DNA of 45,600 bases from NCBI GenBank assembly GCA_035656475.1, contig DASRSQ010000355.1, positions 1 to 45,600 on the forward strand, written 5' to 3'. Every line of letters starts with the position of its first letter. The first letter of the stretch is position 1. Below, piece by piece: positions 6,431-31,805 of the stretch. The position numbers and the translations under genes are program-made. The notes beneath the pieces were generated by a model that saw only the letters and a list, made by a program, of their open reading frames with translations, was not told the DNA's origin and made no database searches. This DNA is from Gemmataceae bacterium (GTDB lineage Bacteria; Planctomycetota; Planctomycetia; Gemmatales; Gemmataceae).

Positions 6431-7117
6431 ATGGTGCGATCCTTGAGAAAGTACCGTGTGTGTTTGCTACTGGTGCCAGTATTATTGATCGCGCTATTCT
6501 GCCTGCGCGAAGCGTACGTCGGTTTGGTGTCCCCAACCTTCCATGCGATTTATTACGAGGCACTCTTGGGCGATGATGAGCGCTCAGTGTCAATCCTCGT
6601 CGAAGCCCTCGCCGACAGGCGCGAAGTGGTAAGATCCGTGGTCGTAAGCCAGTTGGCAAAAAGGGATTGTCTCGACCAGTTGATGGAGCGTGGGCTGAGC
6701 AATTCGAACGCCGCCACCAGAGAAGGGGCCGCATCTGTTTTGGTTCTGATGTCGCCCTGGGTCGTTGTTCCAAAAGACAAGGAACAAGAGTTACGAACGG
6801 AGTTGCGCCGAAATATGCAAGATGCCGACCCGTTGGTGAGAGTGCAGTCCGCGCGGGCGTGCTGGGCGATATTCCGCGACAAGAGCGTGCTTGACGTCTA
6901 TATCGACACTTTTGGCCAACTTGATCTCACTGGCGCCAAGGACCGCAGGACATGCTACCAGCTGTTCAACGGCATCTGGGAGATGCGATCGGATGGCAGG
7001 CCGGCCACCGATTTTCTTCAGGAGCAGACGAAAAGCGGTGATAGAGTGGTTCAGTCATGGGCTCAATCCGCTCTGAAAGGAATCGAAGACCCGAAGGTCG
7101 AGTTCTTCGGTGACTAA
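6431..7117 (+). CDS. Membrane-anchored HEAT-like repeat protein (hypothetical)
   Basis: N-terminal hydrophobic anchor CLLLVPVLLIALFCL. Repeated helical units of the D.D..VR..AA.A type (DADPLVRVQSARACWA; DRVVQSWAQSALK). Confidence 0.5.
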   Translation: MVRSLRKYRVCLLLVPVLLIALFCLREAYVGLVSPTFHAIYYEALLGDDERSVSILVEALADRREVVRSVVVSQLAKRDCLDQLMERGLSNSNAATREGAASVLVLMSPWVVVPKDKEQELRTELRRNMQDADPLVRVQSARACWAIFRDKSVLDVYIDTFGQLDLTGAKDRRTCYQLFNGIWEMRSDGRPATDFLQEQTKSGDRVVQSWAQSALKGIEDPKVEFFGD

Positions 7118-7193
7118 CTGCGGACGCAGTTCAACCGTTTCCGCCTGCCGATGTCCCGCCTTGTTCGCATTCCCTATCCCGAGGAGTAGCGTC

Positions 7194-10100
7194 ATGTCGT
7201 TGCCAGGATCGATTTCCCGAGTCGTCGTGCTGGGAGTGCTCGCGCTGGGGTTCGCCTACGAATCGGGTGCGGGGCCGCAGTCAGACGACAAGGGGGACAC
7301 GAAGCCGGCGCCGCGCCGGCCATGGGATTCGGCGCGCGACATGCCACGCCCGGTTGCCTCGGACCCGGCGGTGAAGCTCGACTATCCGATCGTGTACGTG
7401 CGCGTGCCGCGGCCCTATCCGAAGCCCTATGCGGGGATCAATCATCTCAACCAAGCGGGATTGCACCAGACCAATGCGCCGGGCGCCGAGCTGCGCATTC
7501 TTCACCCGGATGGGCGCGACGAATCGCTGGTGCCGGTGGAACCGCAGGAATCGATCACCGATCCGGTGGTGTCGTTCGATGCGCAATGGGTTTACTTTGC
7601 GAAGTTCCACAACATGAACACCGGTCCGTCGGCAAGCATGACTCATTTGCAGAGCACGAAGGGATCCGACATCTACAAGGTGCACGTTGCGAGCAAGAAG
7701 GTCGTGCAGCTCACGAAGCAGGAGCGCACTCCGAGCGCGGCGGCACTAGCCGTTGGGAAGGAATCGCATCCGCGCGGCGTGCACAACCTGGCGCCATGCC
7801 CCGTCGCCGGCGGCCGCATCGTCTTTGTCAGCGATCGCAACGGCATCCGCGGCGTGCGCGAGCAGACGCAGCCCGCGTTGCAGCTCTTTGCCATGGACGA
7901 CGACGGCACAAACATCGACTTCATCGGTCCGCTCAACTTCGGCACCGCGCTGCACCCGGTCGCGCTGCGCGATGGCCGCGTCATGTTCAGCTCGCTCGAA
8001 ACGCAAGGTTTGCGCAGCGACGAACGCTGGGGCATCTGGGCGATTCACCCGGATGGCACGAACTGGGGCCCGCTGACAAGCGCCCTCGGCTCGCCCCCGG
8101 GCCAGGCAGTCCATTTCCAGACGCAACTTTCCGACGAGAGCATTGTCGTTGAGACGTACTATCAGACCGGCTCGACCGATGGCTTCGGCAGCTACTACAA
8201 ATTCCCGATGCGCCTACCACCCGGTCAGCCGAGCTTCGCCCCTGCCGCAAAGCGATTCACGCCGCATGGCATGGTCAATCTGACGCTGTTCGCCAGCCAT
8301 CAGGACGTGCGGCCCAATCAGAAGACCAATCCCTTCGATAGCAACCCCTTCTTCGGCAACGTCACGCATCCGTCGGCCGCGCCCGACAATCATCTGCTGA
8401 CGACGTGGGCGATGCCGTTCGACGCCCAGGACCAGAGCGTGCCGGTGTACGACGCAGGCATCTATTTGATCAAATCGGGCCGACCGATCAATCATCCGTC
8501 GAAGATGCTGCTCGTCAAGAATGATCCGAAGTACCAGGAGTTGTGGCCGCGCGCCCTCGTGCCGTATCAGCGCATCTATGGCGTCGAGGCGCCGCCGAAA
8601 TTGACGCATCGCAACGATGGCAAGACGTCTCCGCACCTGCCCGCGGGGACGCCGTTCGGGCTCGTCGGCAGTACGAGCCTGTACAAGCGCGAAAGCTATC
8701 CGAATGGCGTCGTGCCGCCGGGCGCCGTCACCGGGCGCTCGGCGAGGCCGGAAGATCGCAAGCAACTCTGGCGCGAGCTGGCCGTGTCACGCTTCGGCTA
8801 CCCGGGCAACTGGGGTGAACAGGGCGCCGATGCCGGCCTCTATTCGAGCAGCGACATCTGGGGCATCCGCATCTTGATTCTCGAGCCGGTCAGCGACGCA
8901 ATCTCGAAAAAGCGCGGCCATTTCGCCCTGGGCAGCGACGCCGAGGAACGCATTCGCATTCTGGGCGAGTTTCCTGTACGACATTTTCTCCCCTCTCCTT
9001 CTGGGAGAGGGGCGGGGGGTGAGGGCAGCAAGCAGCCGCTCGATCCGGACGGCAATCCGGATACCAGCTTCCTCGCCAAGGTGCCGGCCGATGTCGCATG
9101 GACGTTCCAGACGCTCGACAACAACGGCATGGTCGTCAACATGGCCCAGACCTGGCACCAGGTCCGCCCAGGCGAGGTGCGCAACAACTGCGGCGGCTGC
9201 CACGCCCACAGCCAGCAGCCGACGCCGTTCGAGAAGACCGCCGCGGCAAAGCCCGATTACAAGATCTGGGACTTGACCGTGAATCAGCCGCTGTTCACGA
9301 CCAAGGCCAGGGATCGCAGCGGCACGAAGTGGGACGCTGCCGATCGCACCGGCATCACCTTCACGAGAGGCGTGACCGATGTCGAGTTCCATCGCGATAT
9401 TAAGCCGATCCTGGGGCGAAGCTGCGTTGCCTGCCACTCGGTCAAGCACGCGAAGCCCGCGGGACGGCTCGCGCTCGATGACGATAGCCCGATCAAGAAG
9501 CGAGGCCTCGTGCCGTGGGCCGAGAACGTGCAAGTGCCACAGGGATTGCCGCAGAGCTATGCCCGATTGGTGCAATACACCTGGGCGTTTCAAGCGCGGC
9601 GCAGCCCGCTCATGTGGATGATCCACGGCAAGCGCCTCGACGGCTTCGACAACAACGATGTCCCAAGTCCGCCGCTCGATCTGCTTGACGAGAAGAACGT
9701 GCTCGACTGGTGCCATCATGGCAAACGCCGTATGTACGATGTCGACTACAACGGCCACACGATGCCGCCTGCCGACGCAGTCGCCGGCAAGGCGAAGGGC
9801 CCCGACGGCCAGCTCGTCAAGGTCGCGCCGCTCTCCGATGACGACAAACTGACGCTCGCACGCTGGATCGATATCGGCTGCCCCATCGACCGCGACGCCA
9901 AGATCGGCTGGCTGCTTGACGAGGGCCGCCCCACGTTGACGCTCACCGCTCATCCGGACTGCATCCTGATCGGTATGCACGATTACGGCACCGGCATTGA
10001 TGCGACCTCGTTCAAGGTCACGGCGGACGTCGCCATCAATGGCGTCAAGGCGGGGGACAATCTCGCGTCTGCCTTCAAATCGATCGCTCCTGGCATCATG

Positions 10101-10214
10101 GAAATGCGCCCCGCGGCATTGCCGAAAGCGGTGCTCCACGTCGAAGTGCGCGATCGTCAGGGCAACATCTCACGCCTGGAGCGAAGCATCACCGCGCCGG
10201 CCAAGGGGCATTGA
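7194..10214 (+). CDS. Large secreted TolB-like beta-propeller protein with two CxxCH haem-c motifs (resembles 'HzsA-related' proteins of PVC bacteria)
   Basis: ATG 7194 is preceded by GAGGAG (7181-7186) and gives signal peptide MSLPGSISRVVVLGVLALGF. PD40/TolB-like strands: HPDGRDESL, GGRIVFVSDRNG, HPDGTNWGPL. Haem motifs CGGCH at 9189-9203 and CVACH at 9423-9437. The family name is from memory and not verified. Confidence 0.65.
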   Translation: MSLPGSISRVVVLGVLALGFAYESGAGPQSDDKGDTKPAPRRPWDSARDMPRPVASDPAVKLDYPIVYVRVPRPYPKPYAGINHLNQAGLHQTNAPGAELRILHPDGRDESLVPVEPQESITDPVVSFDAQWVYFAKFHNMNTGPSASMTHLQSTKGSDIYKVHVASKKVVQLTKQERTPSAAALAVGKESHPRGVHNLAPCPVAGGRIVFVSDRNGIRGVREQTQPALQLFAMDDDGTNIDFIGPLNFGTALHPVALRDGRVMFSSLETQGLRSDERWGIWAIHPDGTNWGPLTSALGSPPGQAVHFQTQLSDESIVVETYYQTGSTDGFGSYYKFPMRLPPGQPSFAPAAKRFTPHGMVNLTLFASHQDVRPNQKTNPFDSNPFFGNVTHPSAAPDNHLLTTWAMPFDAQDQSVPVYDAGIYLIKSGRPINHPSKMLLVKNDPKYQELWPRALVPYQRIYGVEAPPKLTHRNDGKTSPHLPAGTPFGLVGSTSLYKRESYPNGVVPPGAVTGRSARPEDRKQLWRELAVSRFGYPGNWGEQGADAGLYSSSDIWGIRILILEPVSDAISKKRGHFALGSDAEERIRILGEFPVRHFLPSPSGRGAGGEGSKQPLDPDGNPDTSFLAKVPADVAWTFQTLDNNGMVVNMAQTWHQVRPGEVRNNCGGCHAHSQQPTPFEKTAAAKPDYKIWDLTVNQPLFTTKARDRSGTKWDAADRTGITFTRGVTDVEFHRDIKPILGRSCVACHSVKHAKPAGRLALDDDSPIKKRGLVPWAENVQVPQGLPQSYARLVQYTWAFQARRSPLMWMIHGKRLDGFDNNDVPSPPLDLLDEKNVLDWCHHGKRRMYDVDYNGHTMPPADAVAGKAKGPDGQLVKVAPLSDDDKLTLARWIDIGCPIDRDAKIGWLLDEGRPTLTLTAHPDCILIGMHDYGTGIDATSFKVTADVAINGVKAGDNLASAFKSIAPGIMEMRPAALPKAVLHVEVRDRQGNISRLERSITAPAKGH
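8990..9012. repeat. Perfect 9-bp-stem palindrome embedded in frame in the CDS
   Basis: CCCCTCTCC (8990-8998), loop TTCTG, GGAGAGGGG (9004-9012), followed by CGGGGGGTGAGGGC. It is translated as PSPSGRGAGGEG. Confidence 0.8.
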
Positions 10215-13530: not shown

Positions 13531-13645
13531 CGGTTGCTCCTGAATTCTTTCGCGACGCGGAAGCTATTGCAAGACTTGAATGACCTGGATTGACATGGAT
13601 GGCCAGGTTCTTAATAATTGAGCATAGACTCGCATAGAAACTTAT

Positions 13646-14266
13646 ATGAGCAGACCCTCGCATAAGTCAAGCCCCAAAAAAACACGGGCCATCCACTTGC
13701 CCCAGCGATCCAACGGCAGATTGCGCGTCGCCGCCATCTTGCGGGCGGCGGCCGACGTCGTCGCCGAGAAAGGATACGAGGCGGCAACGATGGCGGAAAT
13801 CGCGGAACGCTCCAGCACCAAGATCGGCTCGCTCTACCGCTTCTTCCCCAACAAGGAAAGTCTTGCCGAGATGATGATCGCCAGCGCCCGCGAAAACCTG
13901 GACATGGAATTCGACCGCTTTGACGCGGCCGTGCGGGGTTTATCGATCGAGGCGCTGGTTGACCATCTCCAGTCTCTGCTCTTTCAGCGACTCCTCACCC
14001 CCGCGCTGAAGAAGCTTCTCGATGCCAGCAAGGATGGATCGATAAAATGCGATGAATTCCGCGATGCCGTTCTGGGGCGCGTCACCAAAACACTGATGAT
14101 CTACCGCCCAAAGCTGCGGAAAGAATCGGCGGGAGACATCGCCCTGGTCATCCTGCTCAACATGAAGGCAGCCGCAACGCACCAGGAATTCTTCGAGTCC
14201 GCGCCCAGCATCCTGGCCGAGTTTCGCGACATGACACGACTCTATTTGCAAAACAGGCTAGGATGA
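13646..14266 (+). CDS. TetR/AcrR family transcriptional regulator
   Basis: N-terminal HTH AAADVVAEKGYEAATMAEIAERSSTKIGSLYRFFPNKESL, 206 aa. It lies 31 nt upstream of the peroxiredoxin-like gene. Confidence 0.85.
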   Translation: MSRPSHKSSPKKTRAIHLPQRSNGRLRVAAILRAAADVVAEKGYEAATMAEIAERSSTKIGSLYRFFPNKESLAEMMIASARENLDMEFDRFDAAVRGLSIEALVDHLQSLLFQRLLTPALKKLLDASKDGSIKCDEFRDAVLGRVTKTLMIYRPKLRKESAGDIALVILLNMKAAATHQEFFESAPSILAEFRDMTRLYLQNRLG

Positions 14267-14296: not shown

Positions 14297-14860
14297 ATGG
14301 TTTGGCAAATTGGCGATCTGGTCGGCGATGTGAAGTTCGTACTACCGGACGGCGCCACGACCGCGCTCACGGCATACACCGGTAAACCCCTGCTTCTGAT
14401 CTTCTTCCGGCACCTGCTTTGAATCTCCTGCCGGGCGCACCTGGTCGAGGTGCAAAAACGCTATGACGAGATTCGGGGCGTTGGCGCCGATGTCCTCGTC
14501 GTCACTCAGGCAGGCGTCGAGTTGCTGGCGGCCTTTGTTCGCGAGGAGCCGCTGCCGTTTCCGATTGTCGCAGACCCCGCACGTGTCGCGTATCGTGCCT
14601 TCGGCCTGGAGCGAACAACGTGGTCTACGTTCTTGCGCTTCGGCGTGATCCTTCGTTATCTGCAACTGATGTTGGGCGGCTGGTTGCCCCGGCGGCCGCA
14701 TAAAGAAGAGGACATTCTGCAACTCGGAGGCGACTTCGTTCTCGACGCAGCGGGACGCCTGTTTTATGCCCACCGCAGCGCGGAACCCACGAATCGCCCG
14801 GGTATCGAGAACCTGTTGCAGGTACTCCGACAAGCGGCGGGTGTTCTCCCGAATCCATGA
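14297..14860 (+). CDS. Peroxiredoxin-like (AhpC/TSA-type thioredoxin fold) protein with in-frame UGA, candidate selenocysteine in a UxxC motif
   Basis: ATG 14297 is in the same frame as the 136-aa track ORF (GTG 14450). The only interruption is TGA at 14420-14422. The product MVWQIGDLVGDVKFVLPDGATTALTAYTGKPLLLIFFRHLL-U-ISC-RAHLVEVQKRYDEIRGVGADVLVV places the UGA at the first Cys of the redox CxxC. Confidence 0.6.
14437..14453 (+). promoter_or_regulatory. Candidate bacterial SECIS hairpin
   Basis: GCACCU-GGUCG-AGGUGC forms a 6-bp stem with a GGUCG apical loop. The stem starts 17 nt after the U of the UGA. Confidence 0.35.
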
Positions 14861-15368
14861 AGATGCAGTTCGTGGGCATGATCCTGATCTGGGATTCCTG
14901 TCCCACAGAGCTGTCGACGGGACGCTGAAGCAGTTCACTGGCCTTTCTGTAAGCCGGCTCATGTCACGATCTCGATCTGGGGCGGATCGTTTACATCGAT
15001 GTACGGGCCCTTCTCTCTACGTATTGTTTCGCTTCAGTCGAATCTGGACGATCGCTTCGTTCGGGTCAGCATGACCTGAACGGAGGTTTGTCTCCTTAGG
15101 CTCTGCTTCGGGCGGCAGCCGGGCCAGGGTCTTGCTGACGTCGCCACGCGGCGCCCTTCCTCGAACAGGGCCGTCATGACCTCGCGCTTGATTTCCAAGG
15201 GACGTGGCGAAGACGGGTAGGCGGGATCGAAAGGAAATGAAAGTCCTTTCCGGCAAAAATGCAAAGCGTGTAGCGCCTGAAGATCGCCCCGCGTTTGTGC
15301 ATGCAGCGTCGCAACGTTTTTACCGCCTGAGTCAGTGCCCGTGCGGTCGCATCTTTGTCGTGAACCGC

Positions 15369-15476
15369 TTGCCTTTATGGCAAATCGGGAGCGCTCCTCG
15401 GCGCACCGAACCTGCCAAATTGGCAGCAAATCGCTCACGGGAGAAAGGTATGGTTGTCATCATATTTGCTTGCAAA
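15369..15476 (+). promoter_or_regulatory. Cluster of palindromes upstream of the sigma-54 promoter (candidate enhancer-binding-protein sites)
   Basis: TTGCC-TTTAT-GGCAA (15369-15383), GGAGCGCTCC (15388-15397), the perfect 15-mer CTGCCAAATTGGCAG (15412-15426), and TTTGC-TT-GCAAA (15465-15476). Confidence 0.3.
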
Positions 15477-15504
15477 CAAATGACTTGCCGCCTTTCCATG
15501 GTGC

Positions 15505-15520
15505 TGGCACGCTGCTTGCT
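15505..15520 (+). promoter_or_regulatory. Sigma-54 (-24/-12) promoter for hsp20
   Basis: TGGCAC-GCTGC-TTGCT matches the TGGCAC-N5-TTGC(A/T) consensus with GG-N10-GC spacing. It lies about 120 nt upstream of the hsp20 ATG on the same strand. Confidence 0.55.
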
Positions 15521-15546
15521 AACGTCGATTTTTTGAGCAGGCAAAT

Positions 15547-15635
15547 CGATCCACCTTTGAACGGGCAAGTGGATCGGCCTGTTCGTAGTGTATGTCACTT
15601 TCTTTCATCGTTGCCCGTGAACCTTGGAAGGAGGT
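15547..15635 (+). promoter_or_regulatory. Structured hsp20 5'UTR: two hairpins, the second sequestering the Shine-Dalgarno (RNA-thermometer-like)
   Basis: Hairpin 1: CGATCCAC (15547-15554) pairs with GTGGATCG (15569-15576). Hairpin 2: ACUUUCUUUC (15597-15606) pairs with GGAAGGAGGU (15626-15635), giving 10 bp including three G-U pairs, with a 19-nt loop. Confidence 0.35.
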
Positions 15636-15640
15636 CTCCT

Positions 15641-16081
15641 ATGCTGTCTCCGCTTCAGACGAATGGCTTGGTCCAGGTTGCCGAGCCGGTCAATCGCCTG
15701 TCCGCCATGTTCGATCGCTTTTTCAACGAAGACATTTTCCAACCCGTTGCGTCGCCGCAGGCTGGTGTCGCGGTCCCATTGGCGATGTGGGAAGATGAGG
15801 ACAACTATTATGTCGAGATCGATGCTCCGGGCATGACTGAGAAGGACATTGACATCTCGGTCCAGCACGGCGATCTCATCGTCAGCGGCGAGCGCCGCTG
15901 CGAGCGGACAGGACCTGGCTACGACACCCGTTCCTATGGCCGGTTCCAGCAACGCATCAGTCTGCCGACGGCGGCCAAGACCGACAAGGTCGATGCCAAA
16001 CTCGCCCACGGCGTTCTTTCGTTGACCTTTCCCAAAGGCGACGAAGCCAAGCCACGCAAGATCGCTCTTCGTAGCGAGTAA
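15641..16081 (+). CDS. Hsp20/alpha-crystallin family small heat-shock protein
   Basis: ATG 15641 sits behind GGAAGGAGG. The alpha-crystallin core is present: PLAMWEDEDNYYVEIDAPGMTEKDIDISVQHGDLIVSGER...SYGRFQQRISLP...KLAHGVLSLTFPK. The track ORF (from 15335) over-extends upstream. Confidence 0.9.
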   Translation: MLSPLQTNGLVQVAEPVNRLSAMFDRFFNEDIFQPVASPQAGVAVPLAMWEDEDNYYVEIDAPGMTEKDIDISVQHGDLIVSGERRCERTGPGYDTRSYGRFQQRISLPTAAKTDKVDAKLAHGVLSLTFPKGDEAKPRKIALRSE

Positions 16082-17068: not shown

Positions 17069-17122
17069 AAACGCCTCGGCTCGGCCTGGCCGCGATACTT
17101 GCGTTTCCCTCCAGCGGTCTTC

Positions 17123-20100
17123 ATGGGGGACATCATGAATTCACAATCGCCTGTGGGCGACACGACCAAACCTGCCATTACCAATCATCCCGAAACTGCC
17201 CGTCGCCCAGTTTCCCAGTTTGTCGTCGGCATCGGCGCCTCCGCTGGCGGCCTGGAAGCGATCGAGAAGTTCTTCGATCACGTCCCTGAAGACTCCGGCT
17301 TGACGTTTGTGATCGTCCAGCACCTTTCCCCCGATTTCAGAAGCCTGATGGACGAACTGTTGGCTCGCCACACCAAGCTCGCCATCCACCGTGTCGAAGA
17401 CGGCATGGCGATTCAGCCCAACGCCATCTACTTAATCCCGCGCAAAAAGAATATGGTCCTGTCGTTCGGCAAGCTGATACTGACAGACCAAGATCAGAAG
17501 CCCGGACCGAACCTGCCGATCGATATATTTTTCCAGTCGCTGGCTCAGGACATGGGGGACCGCGCTGTCGGCGTGGTCCTTTCCGGCACCGGTAGCGACG
17601 GGTCTCGCGGCCTCAAAGAGATTCACGAAGCGGGCGGACTTGTCATCGTGCAAGACCCGGAAACCGCGGGCTTTGACGGTATGCCTAAGGCTGCTCTCGC
17701 GACAGGGGTTGCTGATTGCGTATTACCGCCCGATGTGATGCCCGACAAGATTCTGCAATATGTTCAGCATCCGGTGCGAGCCGAGATTCGCAAGGCGTGC
17801 ATCGATGTGCAGTCGGGCGACGGACTATCCGCCGTCTTTTCTCTGTTGCGGCGTCATTTCGGCGTCGACTTTTCTCTTTACAAACCTAGCACCCTTGGCC
17901 GGCGCCTGGAACGACGTATGACGTTGCAAAACACGGGCTCTCTCGCGGATTACATGGCCATGCTGGAGGCCGACTCTGATGAACTCGATCATCTTTACCG
18001 CGACCTGCTGGTCGAAGTGACGCAGTTCTTCCGCGACAAAAATGCGTTCGATATCATCAAGAACGAGGTAATTCCAAAGCTGTTCGAGCAAGCGTCACCA
18101 GACGATGGAATACGCATCTGGGTGCCTGGCTGCGCGACGGGAGAGGAGGCATATTCCCTGGCCATGTTGTTCCACGAATTCGCCCAGGAGCACAAGCGGA
18201 ACATCGACGTCAAGATTTTTGCGACCGATGTGCATCGCACGTCGCTCGAAGCCGCCGGTGCCGGCGTTTACCGTGAGGCGAGCGTGCTTGATATTCCGCG
18301 GAATTACCTTGAACGCTACTTCGTGCAAAAGCGCGGCCAGTACGTCGTCAATCAGGACCTGCGCAAAATGGTGATCTTCGCTCCGCACAATCTCACCAAG
18401 GATCCGCCATTTACCAAGCTTGACCTCATCACCTGCCGCAACGTGCTGATCTACTTGAATCCGGCGACGCAACGGAAGGTGCTAACTTTGTTTCATTTTG
18501 GCCTGCGCACCGGTGGCGCTCTGTTCCTGGGGCCTAGCGAATCGGTCTCGGACCTGGAGGAAGAGTTCGATGTTGTCGACCGCCATTGGAAGGTCTTCCG
18601 CAAACGGCGAGACATCCGTCTGCATCCGGGCACCGGCCTGGCCACCATGCCGCTTTCCGAAACAGTGATGCTGTTGCGCAATCCGCTCGCCAATCCAGGA
18701 AAAAGTGATTCTCAACTTTCCGATATTTACGAACACCTGATGGGTCGCTACGTCCCACCCAGTTTGCTTCTGAACGAACATCACGAGTTAGTCCATGCCT
18801 TTGGCAACGCTCGCAGGTATCTCCAGGTGCCGGAGGGCAAGGCCACGACCGATGTCCTGAAAATGCTGGACAGTTCGCTGCGCATCGCCGTTAGTTCGGC
18901 GCTGCATCAGGCGGCGAAGGCCGACAAGCCCATTGTTTATTCCGGCGTGCGTTTCACGATCGACGGGCAGGACCGACTGATGAAGGTCACCGCGGTCTCT
19001 CTGCCCAACAAGCGGACAAAGAGCAACTTCTACCAGATTTGCCTCGAACCCGAGGAAGCGCTGCCCCCCGCGGCGCCGGCCCAGGCGTTCGATATTCAGG
19101 GCGAGTCTGCGGAACGGATCGCGAGCCTGGAACGCGAATTGATGTATACGAAGGAGCATCTGCAATCGACCGTCGAGGAGCTTGAGACCAGTAACGAGGA
19201 ATTGCAATCCACGAACGAGGAACTGGTCGCTTCCAACGAAGAGTTGCAATCGACCAACGAAGAATTGCACTCCGTCAATGAGGAACTTTACACCGTCAAC
19301 GCCGAACACCAGCGCAAGATCGAGGAGTTGACCCAGCTCACCAGCGACATGGACAACCTGCTGGCGAGCACCGAAATCGGCACGCTCTTTCTCGATCTCG
19401 ACATGAACATCCGCAAGTTCACGCCGGCGGCGGGTCGGCTGTTCAATCTTCTGCCCCACGATGTCGGAAGGCCGTTCAAGCACATCTCGAACAACTTGCA
19501 GATGGAGGTTGCCACGCTGGTTGGTTTGATCGACCGCATGCAGGCGGACGGCAAAGCCGTCGAGCAGGAAGTCGAATCGCCGCAAAAGCAGTCGTTCTTG
19601 ATGCGGATCCTTCCGTATCAAGCCCAGAACGGACAAGTTGTCGGGACCGTCTTGACCTTCATCGACATCACGGCGGTGAAACAAGCAAAACAGGAGCTTG
19701 GCGTCAGTCAAAGCCGGCTCGACGCCGTGCTCGACAATTCGACGGCAATTATCTTCGTCAAGGATCTTAACGATCGGTACACCGTGGTCAATCGCCGCTT
19801 CGCCGTGCTGATGCACGGCCAATCGCAAACCATCGTCGGCAAGACCGATTTTGAAATCTTCCCAGTGCCTCTGGCCCGAAGCCGGTACGAATACGATCAT
19901 CGTGTGCGTGACACACAGGCAGTCGTTGAAACCGAAGAGGTCTTCGAACTGCCCGACGGGCCTCACACTTACCTGACCATTCGCTTTCCGCTCAAGGATG
20001 GCCAAAATCGTGTCTACGCGGTTGCCGGCATTTCGACCGATATCACGGACCGCAAGCGTGCCGAGGATGAGGCACACGAGGCATTGAGCCGGCGTGACCA

Positions 20101-21178
20101 GTTTCTGGCGATGCTCTCCCACGAGTTGCGAAACCCCTTGGGCGCGATCCTGAACGCGACGCAAGTTCTGGAGCGCGACGGATCCGACGACGCCTTGAAA
20201 AACGAAGCTCGTGAGGTGATTCAGCGGCAAGTCGGTCAAATGTCGCGTCTACTGGACGATTTGCTCGATGTGACCCGCATCGCCCAGAATCGCATCCGCT
20301 TGCAAAAGGTGGTGCTCGACCTGCGTGAACCCATTACCGAGGCAATTGCCACCGTGAAGCCGGTGTATGAAACGGCGCGGGTAACGCTGGATCTGGACAA
20401 CTTTCGGGACGCACTGCCCGTTCTCGGCGATACCGCTCGGTTGCAACAGATGTTCGTCAATTTGCTGATGAACGCGGCAAAATATACGCCGTCTGGCGGC
20501 AACGTGCGCTTGTCAGTGGAAAAGACGGATGAGCAGATCGTCATTCGCGTGAAGGATTCCGGGGTCGGCATTCGTGCAGAGATGTTGGAAAGAGTTTTCG
20601 ATCTGTTCGTTCAGGCCAATGAAACACTTGACCGCGCGGAGGGGGGCATGGGCGTCGGGCTGACCTTGGTCCGGACCATTGCGGAAATGCACGGCGGCAC
20701 CGTGAAGGCGTTCAGCGATGGCCAGAACAAGGGAAGCGAGTTTGTTGTCCGCTTGCCGCTTTCAACGGAAAAGCCGACCATGGGAATGTCATCGCCTCCT
20801 CGTGATTCCAAGTTAGCGACGGTCGTGATCGTGGAGGACAATGCCGACAGCCGCCGCATGCTCGAAGCCATGCTCAAGTTGGACGGCTACACGGTGCATA
20901 CCGCGTCTGACGGCAACGAAGGACTCGATGCGATCCTGAAGCTGCGCCCGCAATTTGCGATCATCGATATCGGCTTACCCGGAATGGACGGCTACCAGGT
21001 CGCGAAACGAACGCGCGCGTTGTTGGCGAAAGACGAAGTTCTCCTGATCGCATTGACTGGATATGGCCGGCCAGAAGATCGTCGGGCCGTTTTGGAAGCA
21101 GGCTTCGATGACCACCTCGTCAAACCGCTCAAACCAAACGAGCTATCGCGGGTGCTTGGGAATGTAACAGAAAAATGA
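17123..21178 (+). CDS. CheB methylesterase - CheR methyltransferase - coiled coil - PAS - histidine kinase - receiver hybrid sensor
   Basis: CheB: [30 protein letters not shown]. CheR: [29 protein letters not shown]. Also a heptad NEEL repeat and PAS segments. H-box [14 protein letters not shown]-box [20 protein letters not shown]-terminal receiver VVIVEDN...[12 protein letters not shown]...LVKPL. The start is ATG 17123 or 17135; the track gives TTG 17099. Confidence 0.9.
19160..19300 (+). repeat. 21-nt (heptad) tandem repeat encoding xS/TNEELx coiled coil
   Basis: Encodes [47 protein letters not shown]. It lies inside the kinase CDS between the CheR and PAS regions. Confidence 0.6.
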
Positions 21179-25269: not shown

Positions 25270-26078
25270 TGGCAATCTCCTTGAGAACGGTCGAGGGATT
25301 TCACTTTTCTTGCCGGCCAGGGGAAGAATGCGCTCGTCCGCGCGACGTAGTCCGCGTAATCGGGCTTGCTCTCGCGCAGGCTGTGTTCCAACAGCGTCAC
25401 TCCAGAGACGCGGAGCAAGAGGAATGACATCAGTAGCGGCGAGAGCATCGTCCACCATGTGCCACCAGCCCCGAGAGCAACGAAGTACAGCCCCCACCAG
25501 ACCGCGAAATCGCCAAAGTAATTAGGATGCCGTGTGTAGCGCCAGAGTCCGCGATCCATGACCTTGCCGGCATTCCGAGGATCGGCTTTGAAATTCGCCA
25601 GTTGCCAGTCACCGACTGCTTCGAAGAGAAAGCCACCGGACCAGATCATTGTGCCGATCGCGTCCAGCCAACCCAGCGGCGCGTCATCGAGTTGGCCGAC
25701 AACGATTGGCAAGGCAATGATGTTCATGATGAGGCCCTGCAGTAGGAACACGATGCCGAGGCTGACGATCCAAAATCGGGGCCCGATTGCCGCGCGCATC
25801 GCTTGATATCGATAATCCTCGGGACTGCCGAATTTGCGAACACCCAGGTGGACGGCTAGTCGCAGTCCCCACACCGCGGTCAAGCCGAGAAGTAGGTACT
25901 TGCGAGGGGATTCGTATGTCGTCAGGAAAAACGTTAATGCCGAGATCACAACGAAGCCTGGACCCCAGAACACATCCACGATACTCACGTCGCGCAAGAT
26001 CACGCTGACGCTCCACAGTGCCGTCATGAACACAAGCGTCACCAGTAGATTCAAGGCTAGCAATTCGAGTAGATTCAA
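25266..26078 (-). CDS. DUF1295 family membrane protein (steroid 5-alpha-reductase / ICMT-like fold)
   Basis: Motifs VSIVDVFWGPGF and GLWRYTRHPNYFGDFAVWWGLY. The likely start is TTG 26078, which overlaps the upstream stop (TTGA). The track ORF runs to 26207 inside the upstream gene. Confidence 0.8.
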   Translation of the reverse strand: MNLLELLALNLLVTLVFMTALWSVSVILRDVSIVDVFWGPGFVVISALTFFLTTYESPRKYLLLGLTAVWGLRLAVHLGVRKFGSPEDYRYQAMRAAIGPRFWIVSLGIVFLLQGLIMNIIALPIVVGQLDDAPLGWLDAIGTMIWSGGFLFEAVGDWQLANFKADPRNAGKVMDRGLWRYTRHPNYFGDFAVWWGLYFVALGAGGTWWTMLSPLLMSFLLLRVSGVTLLEHSLRESKPDYADYVARTSAFFPWPARKVKSLDRSQGDCQ

Positions 26079-27121
26079 CGGATGCTCTCCATCAGATCGG
26101 CGCGAGCAAAGCGATGTACCGGTTCGAACAAGTAATGACCGACTCCCCATTGCTCGCCGCCGCCGAAAGCAAAAAGTTCCGCGCAGGCCATCAAGAAGAT
26201 CCGCCAACGTTGCAAAACAACAGAGGCTTTGGTCTTGCCCATTCCTTGCGAGAACAGGCTATTCAGTTCCGATCGGCGAGCGTCCAGGTTTCGCAGCCAC
26301 ATTTCGCAAGTTCGTGCATAATGTCGGCCATCGATGAACCAGCGCTGGCGAACTTTGAAATCGCGGTCGAATTGGTCGAAGAGATGGAACGATGGCATAA
26401 TGCCGCCCGTGAAAAAGTGCCTCGCCATCCAGTCGCCGTCGCCGTCGATTTCGAAGGGATACGCTAAGGCCCGATGGCAGAAGATGTGGACGAACAGTTT
26501 TCCACCCGGAAGCAACCAGCTGGCCACACGTTCGAGCAACCGCTCGTAATTCCGCATGTGCTCGAACATTTCGACGGAAACGATACGATCGTAGCGGCCT
26601 GGCGCCCAAAACTCTGCGACGTTGGCAGTCACGACTTCAATGTTCCGCACACCTCGCTCCCGGCAACGAGCTTCCATAAACTGCTTTTGACTTCGCGAAT
26701 TGGAAACGGCCGTCAAATTGCAATTCGGATAGTGCTCGGCAATCCACAAGGTGAGCGATCCCCAACCGCAACCTAGTTCGAGGATGTTCATGCCGTCGGC
26801 AATCCCGGCCCGCTCACATGTCAAATCGAGCATGGCATCCTCCGCTTGCGCGAGCGACTGAGCACCATTCTCGAACATGCAACAACTGTATTTCAAACGC
26901 GGGCCGAGCACGGCACGGAAAAAGTCAGCGGGCACTTCGTAGTGCTGCGAATTGGCCAGGTCCGTTGCGATCACCACGGGCTGTTGGCGAAGCCAGGCGG
27001 CGAACTCTTGCGTCGAGGAATTGCATGTCTGGCGCAATCGTTGCTTCAGCATTCGCCGAATGCCGACGCGGACCAGCCAATCGGGAATGAGTCCACGTTC
27101 CACGAAATCGATGATTGTCAT
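26075..27121 (-). CDS. Cyclopropane-fatty-acyl-phospholipid-synthase family SAM-dependent methyltransferase
   Basis: 348 aa. SAM motif ILELGCGWGSLTLWIAEHY, plus VSVEMFEHMRNYE and LLPGGKLFVH, typical of the CFA synthase family. Confidence 0.85.
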   Translation of the reverse strand: MTIIDFVERGLIPDWLVRVGIRRMLKQRLRQTCNSSTQEFAAWLRQQPVVIATDLANSQHYEVPADFFRAVLGPRLKYSCCMFENGAQSLAQAEDAMLDLTCERAGIADGMNILELGCGWGSLTLWIAEHYPNCNLTAVSNSRSQKQFMEARCRERGVRNIEVVTANVAEFWAPGRYDRIVSVEMFEHMRNYERLLERVASWLLPGGKLFVHIFCHRALAYPFEIDGDGDWMARHFFTGGIMPSFHLFDQFDRDFKVRQRWFIDGRHYARTCEMWLRNLDARRSELNSLFSQGMGKTKASVVLQRWRIFLMACAELFAFGGGEQWGVGHYLFEPVHRFARADLMESIR

Positions 27122-27130
27122 CGTAACTCC

Positions 27131-27475
27131 TCAGCAAACTTCGGCGGCAGCACGACCCAGAAACAAATGATCCCAGGTGTTGGACGGTTTGAGGCGCCAA
27201 ATGGCGATCAGTACGTAAAGCGCGATGGCAATGTTGCCAAGCCCCATGATGGCAACGAACCAGAACACCCGGGCAATGAGGCTTGTTTCCCGGTAACCGA
27301 CCCAGATATAGAAGGTGACGAAGCCACAATACGCATCGCAGAAGGTGGCCACGAACCAGCGGTCGGCAAAAAGATCGCCGGCGTCCCATACACTTCGGTC
27401 CAGGGACGCCCACGTCGTGACGCCGATCATCAGTGTCAAAATGCCGGCGAACAGGCTAGTTAGGAGCACTCGCAT
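27131..27475 (-). CDS. DUF1475 family small membrane protein
   Basis: ATG 27475 (MRVLLTSLFAGILTLMIGVTTWASL). Motifs FCDAYCGFVTFYIWVGYRE and LGNIAIALYVL. The family assignment is from memory. Confidence 0.65.
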   Translation of the reverse strand: MRVLLTSLFAGILTLMIGVTTWASLDRSVWDAGDLFADRWFVATFCDAYCGFVTFYIWVGYRETSLIARVFWFVAIMGLGNIAIALYVLIAIWRLKPSNTWDHLFLGRAAAEVC

Positions 27476-27487
27476 TGGCACCAAGCC

Positions 27488-28768
27488 TCAAATGGTGGCA
27501 GTGTATCCGCAAGCCGGCTTCGACAGCATAATCTGGGCAAGGCCGATCTGACGATCCAGGAAACCGGCCTCGCAGTAGCAGAGGTAATAGTGCCACATGC
27601 GAACGAAACGCTCATCGAACCCGAGTCCGCGAACGGCGTCGACGTTTTGCCAAAAGCGAATTCGCCAGTGTTTCAGCGTCTCGGCGTAATGCGATCCGAA
27701 ATCGTCGAGACGCGTCATTCGAAAATCGCTCGCTCGCCGGACAGAATCAGCGATAGCCGATATGCACGGGATGCATCCACCCGGAAATATGTAACGCTGG
27801 ATGAAATCAACGGAGCGGCGATAGGCGTCGTAGCGTTGATCGGGGATAGTAATCGTTTGGAGCGCCATCGCGCCGTTCGGTCGTAATAAGTTCGAGCACT
27901 GGCGAAAGTACGTGTCGAGAAACTCATGGCCGACGGCTTCGACCATTTCGATCGATACGAGTTTGTCAAAGGCTCCGTGTAGCCGGCGGTAGTCTTCGCA
28001 AAGCACAGTGACGCGATCGCACAAACCGGCCGCGCGAATTCGCTGCTTGGCGAAATCGTACTGATTGCGAGAGATCGTTGTCGTTGTGACCTTGCAACCG
28101 TATTTACGAGCGGCATGCACCGCGAAGCCGCCCCAGCCCGTTCCGATTTCGAGCACGTGATCGCCTGGCGTCAGGTTCAACATTCGGCAAATGCGATCGA
28201 ATTTCTCCGTTGACGCTTCCGTGAGCGTTGTGTCGGCAGCGGAAAAAATCCCGGCGGAGTACGCCATGGTTTCGTCAAGAAACAGGGCGAAGAATTCGTT
28301 GCCCAGGTCGTAGTGAGCGTGGATGTTATCCCGGCTTCCTTCAATCGTGTTCCGGCGAAATCGATGCATCCATGCCGAGGCCCACGTGGCCCATCGTGAG
28401 AACGCTCCATCCAGGGCCGCCATCGTTTCGGCGTTTTTCGTCAGCAGACGAAATAAGCCGATGAGATCGTCGCAGTCCCACCAGCCATCAATGAAGGCCG
28501 CTGCGGCGCCGAGCGTGCCTCTGGTTGCCAGCGTCGTGTAGGCGCGTGCGTCGGCAATTCGAATTTCGACTGGATTGGCCGCGTTGTCGCCGTGCACGGT
28601 TGTCCCGAGGACGTCTCGCAGTCGAAGCGATCCCTGACGAATGGCGTTCAAACGTCGCAAGAGGCCGTCGCGACATGCTCGTTGCAGGAAGGTCGGGTGA
28701 CCACGCTTCCGACCGGCGAAACCGCGGGGCCTGGTTTCACATGCTTCGGGTGCGAGTAGAACGGACAT
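27488..28768 (-). CDS. Cyclopropane-fatty-acyl-phospholipid-synthase family methyltransferase (long form)
   Basis: ATG 28768 follows GGAGA. Motifs HYDLGNEFFALFLDETMAYSAGIF, VLEIGTGWGGFAVHAARKYGCKVTTTT, SIEMVEAVGHEF, YIFPGGCIP and LCYCEAGF. Confidence 0.85.
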   Translation of the reverse strand: MSVLLAPEACETRPRGFAGRKRGHPTFLQRACRDGLLRRLNAIRQGSLRLRDVLGTTVHGDNAANPVEIRIADARAYTTLATRGTLGAAAAFIDGWWDCDDLIGLFRLLTKNAETMAALDGAFSRWATWASAWMHRFRRNTIEGSRDNIHAHYDLGNEFFALFLDETMAYSAGIFSAADTTLTEASTEKFDRICRMLNLTPGDHVLEIGTGWGGFAVHAARKYGCKVTTTTISRNQYDFAKQRIRAAGLCDRVTVLCEDYRRLHGAFDKLVSIEMVEAVGHEFLDTYFRQCSNLLRPNGAMALQTITIPDQRYDAYRRSVDFIQRYIFPGGCIPCISAIADSVRRASDFRMTRLDDFGSHYAETLKHWRIRFWQNVDAVRGLGFDERFVRMWHYYLCYCEAGFLDRQIGLAQIMLSKPACGYTATI

Positions 28769-29484
28769 TTCTTTCTCCACAGCTGAAAAGCTTGCCAGTA
28801 AATTGCGGCCGTGATGCGAAATGGCGCCAGCGGATAGCGCAGCAACAGCCGATTGCGGTTCGCTCGTGTCCAGGGCACGCGCCGAAGATGGAGGCCAGCG
28901 CGGAACACCGGCGCCTCGTCCACCAGATTCTCGATGCGCACATCCAACCTCTCGTCCGGCTGCTGAATGTGCCACCGGTATTCGACATTCATGCCCATGA
29001 ACGGCGACACGTGAAAATTCTTCGCATGACGATAAACGCCATCACCGCGGCTGGTTTCGCGATTGCCGTCGCAGAGGACATAAGCATGCCGTTCAAGCCA
29101 CGGTGTATTCTGCACTTCGGCAACAACCGCCTCCAGCGATTCGCCGTCCGGTTCGCTACAATAAAACAGGTTGAGCGGACTGAAGTAGTAGCCCAAGCAA
29201 CTCAGTTGTGTCAGAACCCGGATCGACCCCGTAGGCCGGGCGTCCGATTCTCTTTCCACGATGTCCCGAATGCAGTCGGCCATATTTTGCCGAGGATCGC
29301 CGACGTGATCGGTGCGCCGAAACGAAGCAAGTCCGAATCTGTCCGTCGAAATCAAATTCAACTTCGCCAAGCCCGGAAGCTCTTCCAGGGCGAGATAGGC
29401 CAGGCACAGCCGATAGTGAAAGCGGTGTCGCACAGGCGTCAAACGCTCGTGGTGCAAGACGCCTTCGTAGAGACAACTTTCCAT
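28648..29484 (-). CDS. DUF1365 family protein
   Basis: ATG 29484 (MESCLYEGVLHHERLTPVRHRFHYRLCLAYLALEEL) shows the typical DUF1365 N-terminus. Its 3' end overlaps the next gene's start by about 121 nt. Confidence 0.8.
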   Translation of the reverse strand: MESCLYEGVLHHERLTPVRHRFHYRLCLAYLALEELPGLAKLNLISTDRFGLASFRRTDHVGDPRQNMADCIRDIVERESDARPTGSIRVLTQLSCLGYYFSPLNLFYCSEPDGESLEAVVAEVQNTPWLERHAYVLCDGNRETSRGDGVYRHAKNFHVSPFMGMNVEYRWHIQQPDERLDVRIENLVDEAPVFRAGLHLRRVPWTRANRNRLLLRYPLAPFRITAAIYWQAFQLWRKKCPFYSHPKHVKPGPAVSPVGSVVTRPSCNEHVATASCDV

Positions 29485-30731
29485 TGGTCCAATCCCAATC
29501 CGAAAAACCTTGCGACGGCGAGGGCACTGTTGACGCCGTCTTCGTGGAAGCCGTAACCCCAATAGGCGCCGCAATAATAGGTACGGCGTTTGCCATTAAG
29601 CTTGCCGTGCTCCGTCTGAGCGTGGATGGATTCCCGCGTGAACACGGGATGATGAAAAACGTGGCGATCGAGCACCGTTCGCGGGTCGATCCGCTCCTCA
29701 CCATTGAGCGTCAACAAGATCGGCGTCGCCGAATCAACGCGTTGCAACCTGCTCAGATCATAGGTGACCGCGACCGGGGCCGCAGGATCGTCCGACACGT
29801 GATAATTCCAACTCGCCCACGCCCGTCGCCGCCTCGGGAGCAGTGAGATGTCCGTATGCACAACGGCAACGTTTGGCTGATAGGGGAACGACGCCAACAC
29901 GCGCCGCTCGTCTGCATCCGCATCGCGCAACAATACCAGCGATTGGTCCGCATGGCAGCCAAGAACGACAGCGTCATAGATTTCGGAGGATCGATCGCGG
30001 GCCTGAACAACGACGTGGTTTTCGTGCCGCCAAACTGCTTGCACGGGAGCGTCGGTGACCGTGCAGCTTCGCAACGGCGCCGTGAGACCTTCCACGTAAC
30101 GTCGAGCCCCACCGTCCACCGTTTTCCATTGGGGGCGATCATGAAGTTGGAGCAGTCCATGATTGCGCAGGAACCCGAGCAGAAAATGTGCCGGGAAATC
30201 GAGCAACTCTCCCGCCCGACACGACCAGATGGCCGCCGCCATGGGCACGAGGTATTTCGAAATAAACCAGCCGCCAAATCCTTTGTCTGCCAGCAACTCA
30301 CCAACGGTCCTCACACCAATACCTTCTTCGATCCAAGCTGGCGCCGCGCGGTTGAAACGCACAATGTCTGCCAGCATTCGAAGATAAGAGGGCCGAATGA
30401 GGTTACGACGCTGTGCAAATAAGCCATTCAGCGAACTTCCCTGATATTCGAGTCCCGATGCATCGCATCGAACACTCAGGCTCATGTCGGTGTCCGTGGT
30501 GGTCACGCCGAGCAACCGAAGCAGTTGGCAAAAGTTCGGGTAGGTGCGTTCGTTGAACACCATGAAACCGGTGTCAACGCGGTGATCCCGACCGGCCACT
30601 CGGATGTCGATCGTGCGACTGTGTCCACCTGGCCGGCGTTCCGCCTCGAACAGAGTGATCTCGTGCTCCTGCGCCAGCAAGCGTGCAGCCAAGATTCCGC
30701 TCACCCCGCCGCCGACAACCGCGATCCGCAT
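29439..30731 (-). CDS. NAD(P)/FAD-dependent oxidoreductase (amine-oxidase / desaturase-like)
   Basis: Rossmann dinucleotide motif MRIAVVGGGVSGILAARLLAQEHEITLFEAERRPGGHS. 430 aa. Confidence 0.85.
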   Translation of the reverse strand: MRIAVVGGGVSGILAARLLAQEHEITLFEAERRPGGHSRTIDIRVAGRDHRVDTGFMVFNERTYPNFCQLLRLLGVTTTDTDMSLSVRCDASGLEYQGSSLNGLFAQRRNLIRPSYLRMLADIVRFNRAAPAWIEEGIGVRTVGELLADKGFGGWFISKYLVPMAAAIWSCRAGELLDFPAHFLLGFLRNHGLLQLHDRPQWKTVDGGARRYVEGLTAPLRSCTVTDAPVQAVWRHENHVVVQARDRSSEIYDAVVLGCHADQSLVLLRDADADERRVLASFPYQPNVAVVHTDISLLPRRRRAWASWNYHVSDDPAAPVAVTYDLSRLQRVDSATPILLTLNGEERIDPRTVLDRHVFHHPVFTRESIHAQTEHGKLNGKRRTYYCGAYWGYGFHEDGVNSALAVARFFGLGLDQWKVVSTKASCTTSV

Positions 30732-30866: not shown

Positions 30867-31805
30867 ATGGCCGCATCGGAGACTGCAATGAAGCCGAATC
30901 AGGACACAGGGCACGTCAGTACGGCTACCGTGGCGCGAGCGCTCGGTGTGAGCGTCAGCACGGTGAAACGCTGGGTGGACGATGGAATCCTGCCGGCGCA
31001 CAAAACGGCGGGAGGACACCGCAAACTGCTCATTGCGGACGTTCTGGAACTGGCGCGTCGCACCGATTTGCCTCACGCGGATCTGTCACTGCTTGCCGAC
31101 GAGCGACGAGGGGCATTCATTGCCACAGGCGATGACTTGGCCCTCCAGCTGCAACGTGCCTTGCTTGCCGGCGAGGTGGAAAAGGCGCGCGTGCTGATTC
31201 TCGGCCACTATCGCGCCGGAATGTCTATCGCGGAGATCGCGGACCAGGCCGTGGCCCCGGCGATGGCTTCGATTGGCCGCGACTGGGAAAGGGGCAAAAT
31301 CGACGTGATGGAAGAGCACCGCGCATCGCAGCTGTGCGCCAGTGTCCTCTATGAGCTGAAAGCCAAGCTTGAGGCTAGAGCAAGCCGCAACCGGCCCCGT
31401 GCCGTCGGGGCCGCCCCAGAGGACGATTACTCGGTGCTGCCGACGCTTATGGCGCAGATGACGCTTCTAGATGTCGGATGGGACGCCATCAATCTCGGCC
31501 CCGACACGCCCTTCAGGAGCCTGACTCGCGCCATAGTCGAACTGCGGCCGCGGCTAGCGTGGGTGTCTGTCTCGCACTCTGGACCGGAGGACGCATTTAT
31601 CGCGGCATATCGTGAGTTCTATCGGCATGCCGAGGCTGCCAACGTTCCCGTGGCCATCGGCGGGTACGGTTTGAAAGAAGGGATTCGGTCACGCATCCCT
31701 TACACGACCTATGGTGACCGATTGGATCATCTCGCCGCCTTTGCGCGAACACTCCATCCGCGGCCGGCACGCCCCGAGCGCGGCCGACCAAGGTCACGCA
31801 ATTGA
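30867..31805 (+). CDS. HTH (MerR/excisionase-type) + B12-binding-domain regulator, CarH/LitR-like
   Basis: N-terminal HTH VSTATVARALGVSVSTVKRWVDDGILPAHKTAGGHRKL. W140-x9-E150-H151 (DWERGKIDVMEEH) matches the CarH Wx9EH motif. A Rossmann-like B12-binding fold is present (VGAAPEDDYSVLPTLMAQMTLLDVGWDAINLGPDTP...VAIGGYG), with Tyr188 where the His ligand normally sits. Confidence 0.75.
   Translation: MAASETAMKPNQDTGHVSTATVARALGVSVSTVKRWVDDGILPAHKTAGGHRKLLIADVLELARRTDLPHADLSLLADERRGAFIATGDDLALQLQRALLAGEVEKARVLILGHYRAGMSIAEIADQAVAPAMASIGRDWERGKIDVMEEHRASQLCASVLYELKAKLEARASRNRPRAVGAAPEDDYSVLPTLMAQMTLLDVGWDAINLGPDTPFRSLTRAIVELRPRLAWVSVSHSGPEDAFIAAYREFYRHAEAANVPVAIGGYGLKEGIRSRIPYTTYGDRLDHLAAFARTLHPRPARPERGRPRSRN

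Follow-up and report, generated by a model that had tools for sequence, protein, structure and literature searches.

The window analyzed here, by which we mean the whole 45,600-nt stretch of DNA (contig DASRSQ010000355.1 of the Gemmataceae bacterium assembly GCA_035656475.1), contains on its plus strand a gene that is split in the list of open reading frames (ORFs) into a 41-amino acid (aa) piece (14297-14422) and a 136-aa piece starting with the GTG at position 14450. The ATG at position 14297 and the stop codon at 14858-14860 belong to one and the same frame, whose only in-frame interruption is a TGA triplet at 14420-14422. We consider it highly probable that this TGA is a selenocysteine (Sec) codon in a genuine gene, the product of which is a thioredoxin-fold redox protein of the SelL-related family. 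The argument is built on the following features:

14297..14860, plus strand: coding sequence, in all likelihood of a 187-aa selenoprotein related to SelL (Prx-like2 / AhpC-TSA_2) with Sec at codon 42; supported by a match to NF040769 (162.1 bits) and by Pfam matches.
14420..14422, plus strand: UGA, very probably read as selenocysteine, U42 in the motif U-I-S-C; TGA occupies this column in 80 of 82 loci, and Cys in full-length homologues.
14429..14431, plus strand: TGC, coding for C45, the resolving Cys of UxxC; invariant in alignment A1 and aligned with the peroxidatic Cys of BCP/PrxQ.
14437..14453, plus strand: core hairpin GCACCU-GGUCG-AGGUGC, resembling a selenocysteine insertion sequence (SECIS) and predicted to be the SelB-binding element; supported by pairing, covariation, synonymous constraint and the bacterial SECIS (bSECIS) model.

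A preliminary description of this DNA had stated that the frame opened by ATG 14297 is broken only by the TGA at 14420-14422, and that ORF calling had missed a candidate selenoprotein. Each of its sequence statements was borne out on the window, and the ORF list indeed shows nothing of this gene other than the two fragments. Translated through the TGA, the frame yields a product of 187 aa that contains the peptide ...GKPLLLIFFRHLL-U-ISC-RAHLVEVQKRYDEIRGVGADVLVV..., the immediate surroundings of the motif being FFRHLL-U-I-S-C-RAHL. The start codon at 14297 lines up with the N-termini of homologues in the alignment. Besides the TGA at 14420, a scan of the window for in-frame TGA triplets in a redox-like context returned only low-complexity, out-of-frame noise.

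Several lines of evidence support our view that this TGA is translated. Firstly, it recurs at the same place in related genes. A search among 5.8 billion proteins gave 342 matches, the best 120 of which are described here. In about 115 of these 120, the called protein is 123-159 aa long and covers 60-82% of the query, which is the pattern expected of a family truncated at a common in-frame stop; protein P0092 is longer (175 aa) and covers just 60% of the query, its N-terminal part being without a match. Coverage of at least 91% is reached by four of the best 120 matches. Three of them (P0008, P0048 and P0072) have CxxC at the motif, and the fourth, P0001, has a W that is in fact a TGA translated under another genetic code (a JGI call). 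At the DNA level, the column holds TGA in both of two loci from Gemmataceae metagenome-assembled genomes (MAGs), with 57% and 41% identity, and a metagenome scan with patterns not involving the TGA column provided 80 further loci. In the resulting 82 related loci the column reads TGA in 80 cases (including L079, which was counted by eye as FLRYLG*LVC) and TGT in one (L067), one locus (L060) is frameshifted, and neither TAA nor TAG occurs at all. The TGA is conserved down to 36% identity, and its recurrence is far beyond chance. TGT or TGC is found at this column in the loci L067, L085 and L086 and in the proteins P0008, P0048 and P0072. The preliminary description had placed the UGA where a CxxC-type motif has its first Cys and had proposed a comparison of homologues to see whether Cys or Sec/UGA occupies the column; the alignment agrees with that placement, as the UGA falls in line with a Cys of the rare full-length homologues.

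Secondly, the sequences on both sides of the TGA behave as parts of one coding sequence. The 41 codons upstream of it are open in 68 of 69 loci, and their mean identity to the window gene (41%) is similar to that of the downstream part (48%), which indicates that both parts are constrained as coding sequence. The fourth codon of the motif is TGC or TGT, with an invariant TG, in all 76 aligned loci. TGA also serves as the terminal stop in 18 of the 26 Pfam-supported genes of the window, including the adjacent gene for a TetR-family regulator and the selenoprotein gene itself; because TGA is an ordinary stop in the window, genome-wide recoding is excluded.

A separate observation concerns locus L003 (9960-10080; protein P0013), which comes from a nanopore-based assembly. 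At the Sec column it reads TTT (Phe), a frameshift lies upstream, and the hairpin has been kept; either the copy is decaying or the assembly is wrong here.

Thirdly, the UGA is followed by a hairpin that is itself conserved. In the window it consists of a perfect 6-bp stem and a 5-nt loop; the stem begins 17 nt after the U of the UGA, the spacing between UGA and loop is 20 nt, and the element falls within the codons for A-H-L-V-E-V. In a gap-free alignment of the 66 nt from the TGA onward, comprising 76 distinct loci, 93.6% of the cells in stem columns 18-23/29-34 (window positions 14437-14442/14448-14453) are paired. As its closing pair, the stem has G-C in 32 loci and C-G in 21, with U-A in another three, a covariation with a Fisher p of 3e-8 that is uncorrected for phylogeny, and at least five independent switches between G-C and C-G can be placed on a neighbour-joining tree of the downstream protein. 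As the stem sits in conserved codons, we compared its codon choice with that outside the stem in the same genes:

Val, GTG: 69 of 72 in the stem, 38% elsewhere.
Glu, GAG: 64 of 64 in the stem, 56% elsewhere.
Leu, CTC or CTG (their initial C takes part in the pairing): 76 of 76 in the stem, 68% elsewhere.
His, CAC (CAT still permits a U-G pair): 65 of 76 in the stem, 59% elsewhere.

The mean minimum free energy (MFE) of the core hairpin is -10.7 kcal/mol, versus -6.2 kcal/mol after synonymous resampling (Wilcoxon p = 1e-13, uncorrected for relatedness). The hairpin is conserved, covarying and under selection.

The bSECIS model (PMC13188914, Fig 2 legend) specifies an apical loop of 3-9 nt on an upper stem of 4-16 bp, a G in the first two loop positions according to the pattern N1-G-[G/U]-N-N2, a distance of 16-37 nt between UGA and loop, and an MFE of at most -7.5 kcal/mol. 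The window hairpin lies within every one of these limits, with a loop of 5 nt (GGUCG), a stem of 6 bp, a spacing of 20 nt and an MFE of -8.9 kcal/mol for the 17-nt hairpin (-8.9 to -10.4 kcal/mol for the core). The family consensus loop, C-GG[C/U]-G, also fits the pattern N1-G-[G/U]-N-N2, and the hairpin as a whole follows a uniform family consensus, CACCUCGGCGAGGUG. The claim that a SECIS-type hairpin follows the UGA is thus upheld by its pairing, its covariation and its fit to the model. The GGUC apical loop, to which the preliminary description had drawn attention, is present in the window and proved to be specific to it, the family having the consensus given above.

The window sequence can also be folded into a larger structure:

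14420..14475, plus strand: extended fold, window-only, with a lower stem UGAAUCUC/GAGAUUCG and a 3-bp middle stem (-19.9 kcal/mol, z = -0.9).

Neither of its additional stems qualified as a conserved feature: only 54% of the cells are paired in the lower stem (14420-14427/14468-14475), which pairs the UGA itself, and only 53% across loci in the middle stem.

It should be noted that a number of observations count against the reading of this element and its UGA as a Sec insertion site. The single-sequence fold of the SECIS region (-19.9 kcal/mol) is no better than that of shuffled sequences (z = -0.9), and RNAalifold returned no consensus structure for the alignment of 76 sequences, for which reason pairs were counted explicitly. 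No Rfam family matched at either gathering or permissive thresholds, a result that is expected and uninformative, because coding-embedded bacterial SECIS elements do not form a single curated family. Part of the stem conservation is driven by the protein, as the stem lies in conserved codons. Moreover, the stem is intact in the Cys-form locus L067 and is kept, with two G-U wobbles and a TTG Leu codon, in the Cys-form locus L086; in the third Cys-form locus, L085, it is broken (G·A mismatch, GTC, GAA). The state of the stem in these three loci is suggestive, their number being too small to weigh. Finally, neither tRNA-Sec nor selA, selB or selD is present in the window, which is the entire 45.6-kb contig, and no tRNA was detected when the window and 60 related loci were scanned.

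For the Pfam and NCBIfam profile scans, Cys was written at the TGA position. The protein matches the NCBIfam model NF040769, "SelL-related redox protein", scoring 162.1 bits (E = 9.5e-48; curated cutoff, 120), the match spanning residues 10-176 and profile positions 4-172/173. It also matches the Pfam models AhpC-TSA (E = 1.3e-15), AhpC-TSA_2 (PF13911; E = 1.9e-15) and Redoxin, in agreement with its initial classification as a thioredoxin-fold protein of the AhpC/TSA type. The models for peroxiredoxins (Prx), on the other hand, score far under their cutoffs (PrxU, 17.1 vs 270 bits; BCP, 24.2 vs 140; AhpC, 15.8 vs 301). In an alignment to a solved BCP, the U takes the place of the Thr in the Prx TxxC motif and Cys-45 that of the peroxidatic Cys, and the window motif FFRHLL-U-ISC departs from the Prx signature PxxxT/SxxC(U) in having neither Pro nor Thr at the signature positions.

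A structure was modelled for the Cys-form homologue P0008, which is 54% identical to the window protein. In this AlphaFold model (predicted local distance difference test, 90.4; predicted template modelling score, 0.86), Cys42 opens helix 43-54 straight after strand 32-36, at the N-terminal tip of helix alpha-1. The modelled Cys would thereby occupy the nucleophile position of thioredoxin-fold CxxC oxidoreductases. Among PDB structures, BCP/PrxQ peroxiredoxins match the fold best, ahead of other peroxiredoxins and of thiol peroxidases (template modelling scores of about 0.65-0.72), and the human prostamide/PGF synthase PRXL2B, a CxxC Prx-like2 enzyme, ranks 23rd among the matches. Because the U stands at the Prx Thr position and the Prx models score far below their cutoffs, the window protein is best described as a CxxC-type, thioredoxin-like arrangement on a Prx-like scaffold and not as a canonical peroxiredoxin; its redox motif has a thioredoxin/TlpA-like rather than a Prx-like geometry. 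The protein can be called "peroxiredoxin-like", as in the preliminary description, but not a peroxiredoxin.

The other proteins encoded in the window are typical of planctomycetes (PSCyt2/PSD1 proteins, proteins with pyrroloquinoline quinone (PQQ) propellers and a 3-keto-disaccharide hydrolase), and its PilT is, among named proteins, closest to Gemmataceae sequences (75-77% identity). No synteny around PilT was found with the 356-kb contig of a close relative, whose PilT is 89% identical. It has been reported that selA, selB, selC and selD are present in Gemmata obscuriglobus and Isosphaera pallida (PMC4807772, text and S8 Table), and that AhpC/TSA-type genes split into two calls are selenoprotein candidates in another planctomycete (PMC4807772, S9 Table). 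By analogy with these planctomycetes, a Sec-decoding trait is plausible for the lineage of the window.

Against this background, other explanations for the interrupted frame can be weighed. According to one of them, the locus is a Prx-like gene of the CxxC type in which the codon for the first Cys, originally TGC or TGT, reads TGA, either in a pseudogene or as the result of a sequencing or assembly error. A change from TGY to TGA requires a single base, and damaged relatives do occur, such as the frameshifted L060 and the nanopore-assembled L003 with its TTT and its frameshift. In addition, the exact 136-aa fragment is absent from the protein collection even though the PilT of the same contig is present; the source annotation may hold no product for this gene. 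However, 80 of 82 independent loci, some as low as 36% in identity, share this TGA, TAA and TAG being absent; the flanks are intact and conserved, and the TGA is followed by a covarying hairpin. A pattern of this kind cannot arise from errors or decay occurring independently, and we regard this explanation as extremely improbable. It is also very improbable that the UGA is a true stop and that re-initiation at GTG 14450 yields the functional product, namely the downstream 136-aa piece, possibly accompanied by the 41-aa peptide. Gene callers do give the downstream piece for more than 100 homologues, and in the window a GTG is available 27 nt after the UGA. Nevertheless, starts after the UGA have no conserved position, the short calls beginning at differing residues, and, as judged from the structural model, the downstream piece would be devoid of strands beta1-beta3 and of the redox motif of the thioredoxin fold. 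The Cys-form homologues, moreover, are single polypeptides, and a true stop would not explain why the triplet is always TGA and in no case TAA or TAG. Taken together, the TGA column, the conserved flanks and the normal use of TGA as a stop rule out, for practical purposes, that the gene is a pseudogene, that the sequence is in error or that the UGA is a genuine stop.

There is, finally, a small chance that the UGA is read through as an amino acid other than Sec, for example as Cys or Trp by a near-cognate tRNA or by SelB-mediated misloading, with selenophosphate or Sec synthesis having been lost in this lineage. Two points can be cited for it: no Sec machinery was found within the 45.6-kb contig, and one source translated the TGA of a homologue as W, which reflects the genetic code chosen by the caller and not biology. 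The normal use of TGA as a stop in 18 of the 26 window genes argues against a global reassignment, the hairpin conforms to a SelB-type SECIS model and is under selection, and a member of the Gemmataceae possesses the full set of Sec genes (PMC4807772). We therefore consider translation of the UGA as something other than Sec unlikely, and hold to its reading as a Sec codon.

For the selenoprotein so predicted, we infer a dependence on SelB and a redox chemistry that would run as follows. When the ribosome reaches the UGA at 14420-14422, SelB carrying GTP and Sec-tRNA(Sec) would bind the hairpin at 14437-14453 and would deliver Sec at the UGA in competition with release factor 2. The product would be a cytoplasmic thioredoxin-fold protein of 187 residues. 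Its Sec-42 would attack an oxidised substrate, which may be a disulfide, a sulfenic acid or a peroxide, and would then form a selenenylsulfide with Cys-45, to be recycled by a cellular thiol reductant.

The surroundings of the gene contain several further features:

13583-13608, plus strand: inverted repeat ACCTGG-N14-CCAGGT, overlapping the promoter-like site; a consensus match only.
13590-13618, plus strand: promoter-like TTGACA-17-AATAAT with 11 of 12 matches; a consensus match only.
13646..14266, plus strand: gene for a TetR-family regulator (Pfam TetR_N, E = 5.9e-15), ending 30 nt before ATG 14297.
15055..15085, plus strand: terminator-like hairpin about 195 nt past the stop codon; a consensus match only.

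The gap of 30 nt between the TetR gene and the selenoprotein gene contains no promoter-like site, the only such site lying upstream of the TetR gene, and the two genes are possibly co-transcribed in the window genome. The inverted repeat just 5' of the TetR start might, speculatively, be an autoregulatory TetR operator. The operon suggested by the preliminary description is not a property of the family, as the adjacency is not conserved: a tblastn search with the window TetR found no homologue in 87 other loci.

A different neighbour was seen elsewhere. In 11 of the 64 loci that have sufficient flanking sequence (L040, L046, L047, L050, L052, L058, L067, L069, L072, L074 and L075), the SelL-related gene is followed, about 250-550 nt downstream and on the same strand, by a gene for a di-haem cytochrome c peroxidase (PF03150), which is absent from the window. 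This hints at a peroxide-related function in one subclade. An apparent P-type ATPase neighbour in 28 loci was rejected, since it is an artefact of clustering overlapping ORFs in alternative frames; it is genuine in two loci.

In the window itself, the next gene downstream of the selenoprotein gene encodes a small heat-shock protein of the Hsp20 family (15335-16081, plus strand). Judging by the HSP20 domain, which comprises residues 151-244, the true start probably lies downstream of the GTG given in the ORF list. Further downstream, at 17099-21178 (plus strand), a single polypeptide of 1359 aa combines CheB methylesterase, CheR methyltransferase, PAS, histidine kinase and receiver domains. The gene at 7110-10214 (plus strand) encodes a protein of 1034 aa whose sole Pfam match is the middle domain of the hydrazine synthase alpha subunit (E = 4.8e-12), and it is preceded by genes for a PSCyt2/PSD1 protein and a HEAT-repeat protein. 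Two neighbouring minus-strand genes for methyltransferases resembling cyclopropane-fatty-acid synthase (26075-28975) adjoin genes for an amine-oxidase-type flavoprotein (29439-30731) and a MerR/B12-binding regulator (30867-31805); together they may constitute a light- or B12-regulated lipid-modification cluster.

If the UGA is indeed a Sec codon, the planctomycete from which the window derives decodes Sec and needs selenium for at least one redox protein. The same gene-call error affects well over 100 homologues in public collections, including NCBI entries named "SelL-related redox protein". Correction of these calls restores the catalytic N-terminal third of the protein together with its active-site motif, and the uniform hairpin consensus could be used to find and correct members of the family automatically. 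A more far-reaching idea, which we put forward tentatively and consider rather doubtful, is that the SelL-related clade of the Planctomycetota, centred on the Gemmataceae, is near-fixed for Sec (about 95% of the sampled loci) with the stem embedded in a near-invariant A-H-L-G/V-E-V, the protein motif and the RNA signal having co-evolved and Cys being a poor substitute, and that one subclade is perhaps tied to the cytochrome c peroxidase.

How does this gene compare with known systems? The window protein is a member of the NF040769 family and does not really differ from it, sharing the common thioredoxin/Prx-like fold with the motif at the N-terminus of helix alpha-1. Two homologues from Gemmataceae MAGs, P0029 and P0059, carry the name "SelL-related redox protein" and are calls of 140-145 aa that start just past the UGA; the name itself was not found in the papers of the literature searched. 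The canonical peroxiredoxins, including the selenoprotein PrxU (TxxU) and BCP/PrxQ, are the best structural matches of the protein, but weak matches in sequence, and in the window protein the Sec is at the position of their Thr. SelL itself, reportedly described by Shchedrina et al. in 2007, is a diselenide protein with the motif UxxU that occurs in aquatic animals and in marine bacteria. The likeness lies in the Prx-like2 fold, in the position of the motif, which is that of the thioredoxin CxxC, and in the location of the SECIS within the coding region in bacteria. The difference is that SelL has two Sec residues (UxxU), whereas the window gene has a single UGA and, as the fourth codon of the motif, TGC (UxxC); the UxxC arrangement is shared by all 76 aligned relatives. 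A passing mention of "SelL (a Prx-like protein)" is found in PMC2398784.

With respect to the RNA element, the window hairpin resembles the SECIS of Escherichia coli fdhF, the apical loop of which is GGUC. Both are hairpins located soon after the UGA with a small apical loop of G and U, and the window loop GGUCG includes GGUC. However, the family of the window gene has the loop C-GG[C/U]-G and neither a conserved bulged U nor a long lower stem. The window hairpin fits the general bSECIS model (PMC13188914), and not fdhF specifically.

UxxC proteins of the Prx-like and thioredoxin-like types are long-established predicted selenoproteins of bacteria (PMC1794560; PMC2398784 Table 2; PMC13188914), and UxxC/UxxU Prx-like thiol:disulfide oxidoreductases are listed among the prokaryotic selenoproteins "predicted with high confidence" (PMC13188914 Table 1). 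Both the family and the UxxC class are hence known, and what the window adds is a new mis-annotated gene and no new mechanism. Like the window protein, the published UxxC/UxxU and Prx-like 1/2/3 families from marine metagenomes are of the AhpC/TSA type, have UxxC and carry a SECIS within the coding sequence. These published Prx-like families, compared here by description only, are mainly deltaproteobacterial or marine, and their Cys forms generally far outnumber the Sec forms. Cys forms are in the majority in most selenoprotein families. The clade to which the window gene belongs differs from the published Prx-like families in carrying Sec nearly throughout and in having been sampled largely from soil and freshwater metagenomes and from Gemmataceae MAGs.

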